The notes under the pieces: model-generated
The model's input: the letters and a program-made list of their open reading frames with translations, nothing else
Told to the model about the DNA's origin: nothing
Database searches by the model: none
Made by a program: the position numbers and the translations under genes
Part shown: positions 34,637 to 37,447 of the stretch, one piece after another
Numbering within the stretch: position 1 is the stretch's first letter
How the letters are laid out: every line of letters begins with the position of its first letter
DNA from: Candidatus Marinacidobacterales bacterium
GTDB lineage: Bacteria > Acidobacteriota > Vicinamibacteria > Marinacidobacterales > SMYC01
DNA: 64,000 bases
Reading direction: 5' to 3'
NCBI GenBank assembly: GCA_965224085.1
Contig: CBDCYI010000005.1
Coordinates: forward strand, 736,001 to 800,000

Positions 34637-35179
34637 ATGATAGATCAACGCGGACCGATGAGCTCAACTTTCGATAAAACGCTCGAGTTCCGTTATTGCC
34701 CCAAATGCGGTGCCGAGCTCGTAGTCAAGCGTCTCAAAGACCACGAGCCCGAGCGAATGGTCTGTCAAGCGTGCGATTTCGTCTTCTTTCAGGATCCCAA
34801 GCTCGCGGCCGGGACGGTGTTCGAGAGTGATGGCGGGCTCGTTCTCTTGCGGCGCGCCATCGAGCCGGCCTATGGAAAGTGGGTGTTTCCGGGAGGTTTC
34901 GTGGACCGGGGTGAGCGTGTTCTCGATGCCGCGATACGCGAGACGCGCGAAGAAGCGAATGTCGATGTCGCCATTCGTGAGCTCATCGACGTCTACTCTT
35001 ATGCCGGCTCACCGATCGTTATCATCGTCTATGCTGCCGAGATTTGCGGAGGGGAGCTCCGCGCCGCAGACGAAACGCTCGAAGTGAAGATTTTCGAGCC
35101 GTCCGCCATCCCGTGGGATGAGCTCGCCTTTCCGAGCACGCGTGAGGCTGTCTCTGCCTACATAGAAAGGTTTCTCTAG
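34637..35179 (+). CDS. NUDIX hydrolase with N-terminal Zn ribbon (start may be 34658)
   Basis: YCPKCG...CQAC; Nudix box GGFVDRGE....AAIRETREE. Confidence 0.92.
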   Translation: MIDQRGPMSSTFDKTLEFRYCPKCGAELVVKRLKDHEPERMVCQACDFVFFQDPKLAAGTVFESDGGLVLLRRAIEPAYGKWVFPGGFVDRGERVLDAAIRETREEANVDVAIRELIDVYSYAGSPIVIIVYAAEICGGELRAADETLEVKIFEPSAIPWDELAFPSTREAVSAYIERFL

Positions 35180-35182
35180 AAC

Positions 35183-35959
35183 ATGCATCGATTTGCCGAT
35201 AAAGTCGTTCTTGTCACCGGAGCGAGCCGCGGGATCGGCCGCGCGACCGCCGAGGCTTATCTCGAAGAAGGCGCCAAAGTCGCTCTTTTGGCCCGCACAC
35301 TGCCCGAACTCGAATCTCTCGCCGACGCGTGGAATCAAAGTCGACGGCGCGCCCTCGCACTCGAGTGTGACGTCACATCGCGGGAGTCGGTCGAGCGCGC
35401 GCTGCACGAGCTCGAGACGAGTTGGGGTACGCTCGACATCGTCGTCAATAACGCGGGCATCTCCGGAAGAACCCCCATCGACGAAGACGCCTACGAGCTC
35501 TGGCAGAAGATCCTGGACGTGAACCTTACCGGGAGCTACTTCGTGAGCCGCGCTGCCCTCGCGCTCATGACCTCCGGGGGCGGCCGTATCATCAACATGT
35601 CTTCCGTGCTGGGACGTTTCGGCGTTGCCGGATACGCCGCATATTGCACATCCAAGCATGGCATCTTGGGCTTCACGCGTGCCCTTGCGCTCGAGCTCGC
35701 GCCGCGTGGCATCACGGTGAACGCGATCTGCCCGGGATGGGTCGAGACCGACATGGCGGACAAGGGGATTCGCGAGACGGCGGAGGCGCTCGGCATCACT
35801 CCCGATGAGTTTCGCGATCAGGCGATCGCCGGGGTCCCGTTGAAGCGCTTTCTCGATCCCAAAGAAATCGCCACGCTGACCCTTTACTTGAGCTCGGATG
35901 AAGCGTCCGCCATCACCGGGCAGACCTACAATATGTGCGGCGGACAAATCATGAACTGA
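35183..35959 (+). CDS. short-chain dehydrogenase/reductase (3-hydroxybutyrate dehydrogenase-like)
   Basis: TGASRGIG, NNAG, YCTSK (YxxxK), VNAICPGWVET. Confidence 0.93.
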   Translation: MHRFADKVVLVTGASRGIGRATAEAYLEEGAKVALLARTLPELESLADAWNQSRRRALALECDVTSRESVERALHELETSWGTLDIVVNNAGISGRTPIDEDAYELWQKILDVNLTGSYFVSRAALALMTSGGGRIINMSSVLGRFGVAGYAAYCTSKHGILGFTRALALELAPRGITVNAICPGWVETDMADKGIRETAEALGITPDEFRDQAIAGVPLKRFLDPKEIATLTLYLSSDEASAITGQTYNMCGGQIMN

Positions 35960-35961
35960 TC

Positions 35962-36390
35962 ATGGCCGAGCGACGCGTTTCAGTTTTCTTCTACGGCTCC
36001 TTCATCAATCTCGACGTGCTGAAGCAAGCCGATCTCGAGCCCGAAGGGTTTCGCGTGGCTCGGCTTCACGCTTGGGACATCCATATCGGGCCGCTCGCAA
36101 CGCTCATGCCCAAGGATAATGGCGTCGTCTTCGGTATTGTCGTCGAGTGCACCCACGCTGAGCTCGACCGGCTCGACGCCCAGGACTGGGTCGGCGCCTA
36201 TTTGCCCGAAGCAGTGCTCGTAGAAGTCGACGGTACGTTCCTTCCCGCCCTCACCTACGTGAAGTGGGACTTCGGTGAGGGCGGGGAGACCGCCCCGCCG
36301 ACGCAGGAATACGTCGAGCGGATCGCCGGCCCCGGAGAAACGATCGGCTTTCCAGAGTGGTACATCGAGCACATCCGGAGCTTCATCTGA
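35962..36390 (+). CDS. gamma-glutamylcyclotransferase-like protein
   Basis: VFFYGS motif, V.G.V, EL.RLD, P...Y, P.WY. Confidence 0.75.
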   Translation: MAERRVSVFFYGSFINLDVLKQADLEPEGFRVARLHAWDIHIGPLATLMPKDNGVVFGIVVECTHAELDRLDAQDWVGAYLPEAVLVEVDGTFLPALTYVKWDFGEGGETAPPTQEYVERIAGPGETIGFPEWYIEHIRSFI

Positions 36391-36404: not shown

Positions 36405-36623
36405 ATGGCAGACCCGATCAAGATCTACGGCAAAGCTGGATGACCCTACACCGCCGCGGCCCGTGAGGCCTACGCGACCCGGGACATCGAATATTTCGAC
36501 GTCAAGGCAAACCCCGCACACATGGAAGAGATGCTCTCCGTCAGCGGCGGCGAGCGCGCTGTTCCCATCATCGTGGACGGCGACAACGTGACCGTCGGAT
36601 ATGGCGGCACGTGAGCGGTTTGA
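36405..36623 (+). CDS. glutaredoxin-like (UXX-star-type) selenoprotein with two in-frame UGA (Sec13, Sec70)
   Basis: Manual translation MADPIKIYGKAG-U-PYTAAAREAYATRDIEYFDVKANPAHMEEMLSVSGGERAVPIIVDGDNVTVGYGGT-U-AV*; thioredoxin-fold motifs lie on both sides of the first UGA; fills the gap between the GGCT and racemase genes. Confidence 0.88.
36455..36476 (+). promoter_or_regulatory. SECIS-like hairpin for UGA at 36441
   Basis: CGC-GGCC-[CGTGA]-GGCC-tac-GCG; apical loop starts 18 nt after the UGA with G-U at loop positions 2-3. Confidence 0.6.
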
Positions 36624-37447
36624 CGCCCGGCAGTCCGCCGAGCCCGAGCCAAGAGCGAGAGACGCCGCATCCCGAGTGGAAGCACACTATCGGCATCATC
36701 GGAGGCCTCGGTCCCCACGCGCATATCGAGTTCGAGACATTGCTCTTGAGCTCTACCGAAAAAGCGCTCGGGGGTGCGGCGCTCGATCAAGACTACCCGT
36801 CGTGGGTGCTGTCTTCGATGCCCACTACGCCGGACCGCACAGCTGCACTTTTGAAAGGCAAGGCGTCGCCCGTCGACGCGCTCGTCCGAAGCGCAGAGCG
36901 CCTCACCGACGCCGACTTTGCCGTCATCCCGTGCAACACCGCCCATGCCTTTCTCAGCGGTATCCGCGCGCGGGTCGCCATCCCCATCCTGGACATGATC
37001 CAAGCAACTGCGGAGCGGGCACTCTCGCATGTCGGCAAGACGGGCTCGATTGGCGTTCTCGCCGCGTCGGGGACGCTTCAGTCGGGGCTCTATACGAGCT
37101 GGATCCGAAGGCTCGCGCCTGACGCGAACGTAATCACGCCGCTCGAGATCATGGGCGGCGAGAAGCTACAAGAAGAGCTCGTGATGGAGCCTATCTTCGG
37201 CGAGCGCGGGATCAAGTCGGGTGCGTTTCGTGACCCCGATCGTAAAGAAGAGCTCGCCGAGCCGCTTCGCGAAGCGGCGCGCACGCTCGCACGCGCGGGC
37301 GCCGAAATTGTCCTCACGGCCTGCACCGAGATACCGCTCGCGCTCGGCCGCGACCGCGTCGACGCGATCCCGCTCCTCGATCCAATGGCGGTGGCCGCCG
37401 AGGAGTCCGTCGCGGTAGCACTCGGCCGCCGTCCCTTACCTTCGTAA
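36611..37447 (+). CDS. aspartate/glutamate racemase family protein
   Basis: IGIIGGLGP, PDRT, IPCNTAH and LTACTEIP (both catalytic Cys). Confidence 0.92.
   Translation: MSGLTPGSPPSPSQERETPHPEWKHTIGIIGGLGPHAHIEFETLLLSSTEKALGGAALDQDYPSWVLSSMPTTPDRTAALLKGKASPVDALVRSAERLTDADFAVIPCNTAHAFLSGIRARVAIPILDMIQATAERALSHVGKTGSIGVLAASGTLQSGLYTSWIRRLAPDANVITPLEIMGGEKLQEELVMEPIFGERGIKSGAFRDPDRKEELAEPLREAARTLARAGAEIVLTACTEIPLALGRDRVDAIPLLDPMAVAAEESVAVALGRRPLPS
36617..36650 (+). promoter_or_regulatory. SECIS-like hairpin for UGA at 36612
   Basis: CGGC-[AGTCC]-GCCG with lower stem GGTTT/GAGCC; loop starts 17 nt after the UGA with G-U at loop positions 2-3. Confidence 0.55.

Follow-up and report, generated by a model that had tools for sequence, protein, structure and literature searches.

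Within the 64,000-nucleotide stretch of a Candidatus Marinacidobacterales genome analyzed here (contig CBDCYI010000005.1, positions 736,001-800,000; hereafter the window), the interval 36405-36623 on the + strand is very probably a real, translated selenoprotein gene and, judging by its sequence, an ordinary member of family 1 of the UXX-star selenoproteins (NF041114) with two selenocysteine (Sec, U) residues. We propose that its two in-frame UGA codons are both read as Sec by the SelA/SelB/SelD/tRNA-Sec system of the genome, each via its own downstream hairpin (i.e., a candidate selenocysteine insertion sequence, SECIS). The complete explanation, which joins the identity of the gene and the reading of both UGA codons to the mechanism proposed below, is one toward which we lean with reserve. 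The predicted features are as follows:

36405-36623, + strand: coding sequence of a two-Sec glutaredoxin-fold protein (72 residues, UXX-star selenoprotein family 1), as judged from NF041114, PF00462, pN/pS and fold
36441-36443, + strand: UGA1, predicted Sec13, at the N-terminal active-site position of U-P-Y-T (G-U-P-Y-T), aligned with the first Cys of CPYC in E. coli Grx3
36612-36614, + strand: UGA2, predicted Sec70, third residue from the C-terminus (U-A-V-stop), from codon conservation
36621-36623, + strand: predicted true stop, TGA, two codons past Sec70, from its fixed spacing and variable identity
36452-36476, + strand: candidate SECIS 1, stem CGC/GCG plus GGCC/GGCC, loop CGUGA at 36462-36466
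36617-36650, + strand: candidate SECIS 2, mostly 3' of the stop codon, core hairpin at 36625-36643, loop AGUCC at 36632-36636

With TGA read as U, the frame opened by the ATG at 36405 yields a 72-residue protein that starts MADPIKIYGKAG-U-PYT and ends GYGGT-U-AV; the first in-frame TGA (36441-36443) falls at residue 13 and the second (36612-36614) at residue 70, after which come GCG GTT (Ala, Val) and the third TGA (36621-36623), the last codon of the coding span. Sequence and translation thus agree at every point (ATG, both TGAs, the Ala-Val tail and the final TGA) with the original prediction, made from the letters alone, of a hidden 72-residue, glutaredoxin-like, two-Sec protein of the UXX-star kind, and that identification is borne out by profile searches: the UXX-star model that the prediction had named exists, and the protein scores above its cut-off over the full profile. 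Specifically, against the equivalog model NF041114.2 of NCBIfam, named "UXX-star selenoprotein family 1," the read-through product scores 109.5 bits (cut-off, 72; E = 7.1e-32), with residues 5-72 lying on profile positions 1-70 of 70, and it also passes the parent subfamily NF041212 (92.9 bits, cut-off 66) and Pfam Glutaredoxin PF00462 (32.6 bits, cut-off 22.9).

UXX-star families 2 and 3 and the HUGP/GUXX-star fusion (NF041211, NF047338 and NF045501) remain below their cut-offs, with 59.1 against 100, 50.3 against 97 and 58.5 against 325 bits, respectively, the last of these placing the window protein on profile positions 166-236. None of the NCBIfam cut-offs for Grx3, NrdH, YruB and mycoredoxin is reached (GRX_bact, 34.1 against 90; among the NrdH models, TIGR02194, 18.4 against 85.75, and PRK10329, 12.4 against 131), and of the glutaredoxin models only the domain-level one from Pfam is passed.

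The kind of protein is not new, because a curated NCBI equivalog model exists and a RefSeq example is cited in a 2026 review (PMC13188914); the gene adds one member to a known family. In the passages of that review concerned, family 1 is listed as "Distant Grx-like protein 1" (motif UxxT, 2 Sec) and credited to Zhang and Gladyshev 2008, and family 2 and the HUGP fusion are attributed to Haft and Tolstoy 2025; the main text of Zhang and Gladyshev 2008 contains no occurrence of "distant Grx" and lists only "Grx-like, UxxC." The claim that standard pipelines would annotate nothing here therefore stands only in part: that model and that RefSeq example go against it, whereas at the locus itself the list of open reading frames under translation table 11 contains just a 42-codon GTG fragment (36463-36591) and overlapping spurious frames, and a word-indexed search of a 5.8-billion-protein collection returns a single candidate, the 42-residue fragment of this gene.

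Predicted decoding of the two UGA codons

Profile searches of the window's own genome find the machinery that the original prediction presupposes, namely selA (550.1 bits), selB (364.9 bits), selD (279.6 bits) and a tRNA-Sec (74 bits; called by ARAGORN as tRNA-SeC with anticodon TCA), together with a second canonical selenoprotein, a full-length formate dehydrogenase alpha subunit (FdhA; 1338.8 bits) with one in-frame TGA. The window itself contains no tRNA according to ARAGORN. The gene selA occurs in 40 of 41 related genomes (a count that includes the window's own) and in all but one (25/26) of those with a UXX-star gene above the cut-off, the one without it (G027) being 83% complete. Two side observations concern this machinery. 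A second molybdopterin-oxidoreductase-like match to the FdhA model (L169, G000:C4:1100993-1101556, + strand) also has one in-frame TGA and may be another selenoprotein of the genome. The selD match (L010, G000:C5:1545162-1546073, - strand) lies in a 774-codon open frame that far exceeds the 311 positions of the selD model, which suggests that selD is fused to another domain.

To follow the two codons through the family, we use two sets of loci: a first set in which 49 of 50 loci could be parsed (L045 did not fit the pattern and was dropped) and a second set in which 79 of 80 could (L161 was dropped). It should be noted that the parsing pattern, U/C/S-x-[V/I]-stop, itself requires the two-codon spacing between site 2 (the position of UGA2) and the stop, and that the two sets overlap in species and hence are not independent. 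The 80 loci of the second set come from a scan of named genomes with a Cys pattern, which makes only forms with Cys at site 1 (the position of UGA1) visible; their titles are mostly Acidobacteriota or Vicinamibacterales, the others being Deltaproteobacteria, Anaeromyxobacter, Polyangium, Thermodesulfobacteriota, Syntrophus, Pelotomaculum, Brocadiia and Planctomycetales, and the family lives in soil and sediment bacteria. The unpublished genomes G027, G089 and G192 contribute rows to the counts and to alignments A2-A4, and G064 appears only in the table of the 301-genome sample described next; no claim rests solely on these genomes.

The gene is above the cut-off in 26 of the 41 related genomes, and the two-TGA layout recurs in 25 of these 26 matches. 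By family, with the window's genome left out, it is found in 18 of 18 genomes of the first (f1), 8 of 8 of the second (f2) and 0 of 14 of the third (f3). In a 301-genome sample of the phylum, the gene is above the cut-off in 48 genomes; two TGAs fall within the match in 39 of these rows and one TGA in 9, and the layout with both TGAs at fixed positions is kept across families and phyla. Two genomes of the same family as the window's genome have apparently damaged copies that depart from it and may be pseudogenes or assembly errors: in one (L086, G013:C2:3024175-3024366) the second TGA is TGG and the frame runs into unrelated sequence, and in the other (L087, G006:C20:130659-130863) the match is split into two half-length pieces.

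The conservation that the original prediction demanded downstream of UGA1 is present. Between the two TGAs, the ratio of nonsynonymous to synonymous differences (pN/pS) against the window copy is 0.19-0.38 in 10 of 10 same-length relatives, indicating purifying selection, and 17 columns are invariant in the 49 members (G9, K10, U/C13, P14, T16, A19, Y30, V33, M43, G49, V53, P54, G65, G67, G68, U70 and V72). The predicted Cys-containing homologues likewise exist, at site 1 and, rarely, at site 2. At site 1, the 49 members have TGA in 40 cases, TGC in 5 and TGT in 4 (i.e., Cys in 9 of 49), the classical Sec/Cys pair. At site 2, the only Cys counterparts are one locus of the family (L157; 1/79) and four sister-family proteins that end GRG-C-x-x(-x-x)-stop, and because Cys is almost absent there within the family, the Sec/Cys evidence at this site is thin.

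For UGA2, the codons themselves carry more of the argument. Site 2 is TGA in 49/49 loci of the first set and in 77/79 of the second (the remaining two being TGC in L157 and TCA in L145), and TAA or TAG never occurs there in 128 loci. The stop two codons later is TGA in 39, TAG in 8 and TAA in 2 loci of the first set and TGA in 40, TAG in 27 and TAA in 12 of the second, that is, it is something other than TGA in 10/49 and 39/79. Since a genuine stop codon should drift as this final stop does, UGA2 is probably not a stop. The two codons in between behave as coding sequence would: residue 72 is Val through four codons (GTC 24, GTT 14, GTG 9 and GTA 2 in the 49 loci), residue 71 is mostly Gly or Ala over 11 codons, the variation lies mostly at third positions, and the stop stays at a constant distance whatever gene follows, the sequence 3' of it being unrelated between lineages. 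What the two loci of the second set without TGA at site 2 (L145, Ser; L157, Cys) share is a Cys at site 1, longer inserts ahead of the last strand and the absence of a SECIS-like hairpin. In a sister group (L079, L080 and L085), CPYC is kept, the proteins end GWEGRG-U-T-V-[H/Y]-stop, and a strong hairpin follows each UGA; here Sec is followed by three residues, not two, and the name "UXX-star" is not literal for them.

A stem-loop shortly downstream of UGA2 is a candidate SECIS, predicted to act in a SelB-dependent manner. As a rule for such hairpins, we required at least 5 contiguous pairs and a loop of 3-6 nt that contains GU and starts 15-21 nt after the UGA. After UGA2, this rule picks out 37/49 relatives and 49/77 of the second set, compared with 159/4900 shuffles (3.2%) and 27/662 TGA ends of long open reading frames in the window's own genome (4.1%); it picks out 0/2 of the family members whose site 2 is Cys or Ser, 0/4 of the Cys sister forms and 3/3 of the Sec sister forms. 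The loops are mostly GGUC, GUC, GUU or AGUUC, GU is present in 41/49, and the loop starts 16 or 17 nt past UGA2 in 26/49. The hairpins are not intrinsic terminators, because a T-run follows in only 4/49.

A covariance model built from 10 hairpins was searched against 100 loci, and in the best 43 matches 96.3% of cells are paired (75.0% when shuffled; slid controls, 22-56%), both-side changes occur in 6/6 pairs, and the covariation score is 0.465 against 0.092, a value reached by 0/500 shuffles, in an alignment that is fitted to the model and favors structure and in which one of the 43 matches is a reverse-strand hit. Two other approaches were given up. Alignment of the 49 post-UGA2 segments by MAFFT followed by RNAalifold gave 0 pairs, because the hairpins are not aligned with one another in a plain alignment, and was replaced by the per-sequence hairpin scan and the covariance model; folding energy was dropped as a criterion because it gave no separation from shuffles (202/980 at UGA2; z = -0.21 for SECIS 1).

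In the window, the core of SECIS 2 consists of GC, CGGC / GCCG, GC, that is, a 4-bp contiguous stem, a C-A mismatch and two further pairs; its energy is -16.3 kcal/mol (z = -2.13, 6/200 shuffles being as good), and its loop starts 17 nt past UGA2. Upstream, codons 7-9 after UGA1 are near-fixed in the Sec forms (GCC 38/40, CGT 38/40, GAG 35/40) and vary in the nine Cys forms (at the CGT codon, CGT 2, CGC 2, AGG 2, CTC, AGA and CGA; GAG in 1/9). The window's copy of these bases makes up the upper part of the SECIS 1 hairpin, whose loop CGUGA starts 18 nt past UGA1. The contrast between a GCC-CGU-GAG sequence constrained at the nucleotide level in Sec forms and free in Cys forms is suggestive rather than statistical proof, because the Cys forms fall in few lineages. 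In bacterial SECIS elements, a GU-containing apical loop lies some 16-37 nt after the UGA, a geometry that the two loops, 18 and 17 nt past their UGAs, would fit. A scan of the whole window at the Rfam gathering thresholds gave no matches.

Fold, proposed mechanism and alternatives

A profile of the 49 members finds E. coli Grx3 as its best solved relative (E = 6e-7), with Sec13 on the first Cys of CPYC. The AlphaFold model (mean predicted local distance difference test score, 86.9) consists of strand 5-9, helix 14-22, strand 28-32, helix 37-47, strand 55-58 and strand 61-64, that is, a minimal beta-alpha-beta-alpha-beta-beta fold with no helix after the last strand and with the invariant Thr16 in the place of the second motif Cys. 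The best Foldseek matches are 3ic4 (A. fulgidus Grx-1), 1h75 (NrdH-redoxin) and 3grx (E. coli glutaredoxin 3), with template modeling scores of 0.73-0.76. DSSP assigns a two-residue strand or bridge to 52-53 and a second one to 70-71 in the full-length model; in a prediction repeated after residues 70-72 had been deleted from all alignment rows, the 52-53 mark is missing and all other elements are unchanged. Because the mark vanishes together with the tail, the simplest reading of the models is that tail residues U70-A71 pair with A52-V53, just before cis-Pro54. A passage of PMC11724882 describes, for class I glutaredoxins, that the Val preceding the cis-Pro hydrogen bonds the cysteine of bound glutathione through its backbone.

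From these models we derive a mechanism that, taken as a whole, we put forward tentatively, as a proposal just short of evenly balanced between holding and failing. Sec13 would be the attacking selenolate, and Sec70, on the short tail T-U-A-V-COOH, would be its resolving and relay partner, with the tail lying against A52-V53-P54 in the groove that in glutaredoxins receives the glutathione cysteine. In the oxidized state, the two seleniums would close an intramolecular Sec13-Sec70 selenenylselenide, or a selenenylsulfide in the relatives with Cys13 (9/49), and an external reductase or thiol would re-reduce the bond. The intramolecular selenenylselenide is favored because the model puts Sec70 at the position of the glutathione sulfur, next to Sec13. 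The protein would then be a self-contained small oxidoreductase that is probably independent of glutathione. This would agree with the lack of a match to the classical glutathione synthetase model (gshB) in the window's own genome, which is 95% complete, so that absence of the gene is unproven. The invariance of K10, V53, P54, G67, G68, U70 and V72 in all 49 members also speaks for the mechanism.

A bolder version, which we consider conceivable but rather doubtful, is that the tail T-U-(A/G)-V-COOH takes the part of glutathione as a covalently attached surrogate and works through a diselenide, in bacteria that possibly do not make glutathione. Sec70 would pair with the Val-Pro backbone at the position of the glutathione cysteine, the glycine would have its counterpart in the small residue 71, and the invariant Lys10 would hold the free carboxylate two residues on. 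If true, this would account for the stop exactly two residues past Sec, for the loss of the last helix of the fold, and for a C-terminal Sec that is almost never Cys when the active-site Sec often is, and the protein would be a glutathione-independent "glutaredoxin with its own cofactor."

Several observations weigh against the explanation offered here. Cys stood in for Sec when the models were made, and the proximity of Sec13 and Sec70 is read from the bridge pattern. For the hairpins, the covariation alignment carries the bias and the reverse-strand hit mentioned above, and energy by itself is weak after UGA2, the observed value being reached by 202/980 shuffles. SECIS 1 in the window folds at -13.8 kcal/mol, no better than shuffles, and passes the hairpin rule only with a 4-bp stem; at UGA1, the 5-bp rule picks out 5/40 Sec forms and a 4-bp version 16/40. 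No neighboring gene is universal across the 49 loci, and none points to a redox partner. Finally, a passage of the review PMC13188914 suggests metal binding or unknown substrates for UXX-star proteins, a point taken up below.

Sec is kept more strictly at site 2 (49/49 and 77/79) than at site 1 (40/49), as would suit a residue that is itself the business end, and it is conceivable, albeit unlikely in our judgment, that the C-terminal Sec acts mainly between molecules, its flexible tail shuttling electrons or a bound group between the protein and a partner enzyme or another copy of itself, as the swinging Gly-Cys-Sec-Gly tail of animal thioredoxin reductase does, instead of resolving Sec13. The HUGP/GUXX-star fusion (NF045501), in which the module sits on another selenoprotein domain and to which the window protein aligns with 58.5 bits, would also be in line with such a role. 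The models with and without the tail, however, place the tail on the protein's own cis-Pro segment, and no partner gene is conserved alongside across lineages.

We consider it decidedly unlikely that the two selenolates are instead ligands for a soft metal or metalloid (Hg, As, Cu or Zn), a cluster, or a selenium or sulfur species, in a carrier, chaperone or sensor. The suggestion in the review speaks for such a role, as do the Protein Data Bank fold matches, which include glutaredoxins with metals (titles with cisplatin, cadmium and "Metal Binding of Glutaredoxins"), and side-by-side selenolates would make a very strong soft-metal site; on the other hand, no metal-resistance or transport gene is found among the conserved neighbors, and the occurrence of Cys at site 1 in 9/49 members while the glutathione-groove residues are invariant fits catalysis equally well.

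A third possibility, which we regard as very improbable, is that UGA1 alone encodes Sec and that UGA2 at 36612 is a real stop, leaving a 69-residue single-Sec glutaredoxin, with GCG-GTT-TGA and the hairpin being an RNA signal, for instance a terminator, or the start of the racemase gene that follows. A GTG at 36611 does overlap the TGA at 36612 in the classic GTGA arrangement, and Cys replaces Sec at site 2 in only 1/79 of the family. Set against this are a site 2 that never becomes TAA or TAG in 128 loci while the final stop drifts, two following codons that change mostly at the third position with Val kept and the distance to the stop constant, the scarcity of T-runs (4/49), which leaves no intrinsic terminator, and the loss of the hairpin in the Cys and Ser forms. 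Because Sec insertion is not known ever to be complete, some termination at UGA2 is likely in any case. That there is no gene at all, only a decayed glutaredoxin pseudogene or a chance frame with stops, is barely credible, for although ordinary gene callers yield only the 42-residue fragment, the fixed two-TGA layout across families and phyla, the pN/pS of 0.19-0.38 and the full-length profile match all speak against it.

Genomic setting and transcription

Upstream of the gene, the window carries an amidohydrolase, an ornithine cyclodeaminase, a NUDIX gene, a short-chain dehydrogenase/reductase (SDR) gene and a GGACT-like gene, and downstream an Asp/Glu-type racemase, YjeF/Nnr, TsaE and a DHDPS-like gene. 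The NUDIX-SDR pair is found upstream in 16/49 loci, all within the window's own taxonomic order, and a CehA/McbA hydrolase in 12 other loci; other lineages also have a major facilitator superfamily transporter or a metallo-beta-lactamase. The GGACT/AIG2 (gamma-glutamyl-cyclotransferase-like) gene (35935-36390, + strand), which is preceded by the NUDIX and SDR genes (34637-35959, + strand), ends 14 nt 5' of the selenoprotein start, and a link of the selenoprotein to gamma-glutamyl or thiol metabolism is possible.

The nearest NCBIfam model of the downstream racemase (36611-37447, + strand) is cysteate racemase CuyB, at 155.7 bits and below the cut-off of 190. There is no ATG before its conserved PEWKHTIGIIGG block; the only in-frame starts, GTG at 36611 and TTG at 36620, overlap Sec70, the selenoprotein stop and SECIS 2. 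In close relatives, the racemase has an ATG directly before the conserved block.

None of the RNA runs holds more than 0.09 of the sampled words. Contigs of RNA-type libraries from relatives that are 90-95% alike cross UGA2 and the stop into the downstream gene; they cover the following positions, and none reaches UGA1:

36468-36655: RNA-library contig X18
36490-36753: RNA-library contig X15
36529-36798: RNA-library contig X17
36552-36798: RNA-library contig X19

Given that DNA carry-over is possible, these contigs are at most a weak hint of transcription. Separately, the 35 nt at 36549-36583 (around ERAVPIIVDGD) match high-depth contigs in three metatranscriptome runs, with unrelated flanks; this is probably chance or a domain-level likeness to an abundant transcript other than that of the selenoprotein gene.

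Significance and relation to known systems

For annotation, the locus is a case of a 72-codon gene, very probably real, that is dropped by gene finders naive to the dual meaning of a stop codon, and its second candidate SECIS overlaps the apparent start of the next gene. The family is widespread and catalogued, and the two-Sec chemistry discussed here rests on sequence and models. The near-constant C-terminal Sec, the covarying hairpin 3' of the stop and the modeled docking of the tail on the glutathione-cysteine site lead to concrete hypotheses for the family. These three points do not appear in the passages of the review PMC13188914 drawn on here or in the main text of Zhang and Gladyshev 2008, and they may already be contained in Haft and Tolstoy 2025. 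None of them alters the kind of gene, which is a member of a known family.

The closest known system is UXX-star family 1 itself: the window protein has its glutaredoxin fold, its UPYT active site and its Sec at the third position from the end, with no substantive difference; the window copy has Sec at site 1, like 40/49 relatives. A small glutaredoxin-like module with Sec or Cys near the C-terminus is what families 2 and 3 and the HUGP fusion have in common with it. Sister-family relatives have tails of the form G-C-x-x-stop or G-U-T-V-[H/Y]-stop in a GWxGRG context, and some, unlike the window protein, keep CPYC; HUGP/GUXX-star (NF045501) is a fusion family with the module at the C-terminus of another selenoprotein domain.

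Among more distant systems, the window protein shares with E. coli Grx3 (3grx/1fov), NrdH-redoxin and A. fulgidus Grx-1 a Lys preceding the motif as well as the V-P and G-G motifs, and it lacks the second motif Cys and the helix past GG; for NrdH-redoxin (1h75), the likeness is at the level of the fold only. The glutathione-dependent class I dithiol glutaredoxins combine CPYC, with its second Cys, and a C-terminal helix after GG that carries the acidic residue for glutathione binding, whereas the window protein has neither (UPYT; the chain ends five residues past G67). The clostridial selenoprotein glutaredoxin (UxxC; Kim et al. 2011, as cited in a passage of PMC13188914) has the glutaredoxin fold with Sec at the N-terminal active-site position. 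It differs in that it has a single Sec and, within the motif, a resolving Cys, is full-length in its fold and uses glutathione, whereas the motif of the window protein ends in Thr and its second redox residue would be the C-terminal Sec. Animal thioredoxin reductase ends in a flexible Gly-Cys-Sec-Gly tail, whose Sec forms a selenenylsulfide or selenenylselenide with a nearby partner; the window protein would resemble it in having a Sec one to two residues ahead of the free C-terminus. Here the likeness is one of mode, not kinship: the window protein has no flavoprotein domain, and the partner of its C-terminal Sec would lie 57 residues away, in the glutaredoxin active site. The position of the second candidate SECIS has its parallel in the same enzyme, as the engineered expression of animal thioredoxin reductase in bacteria also puts a SECIS hairpin 3' of the stop codon.

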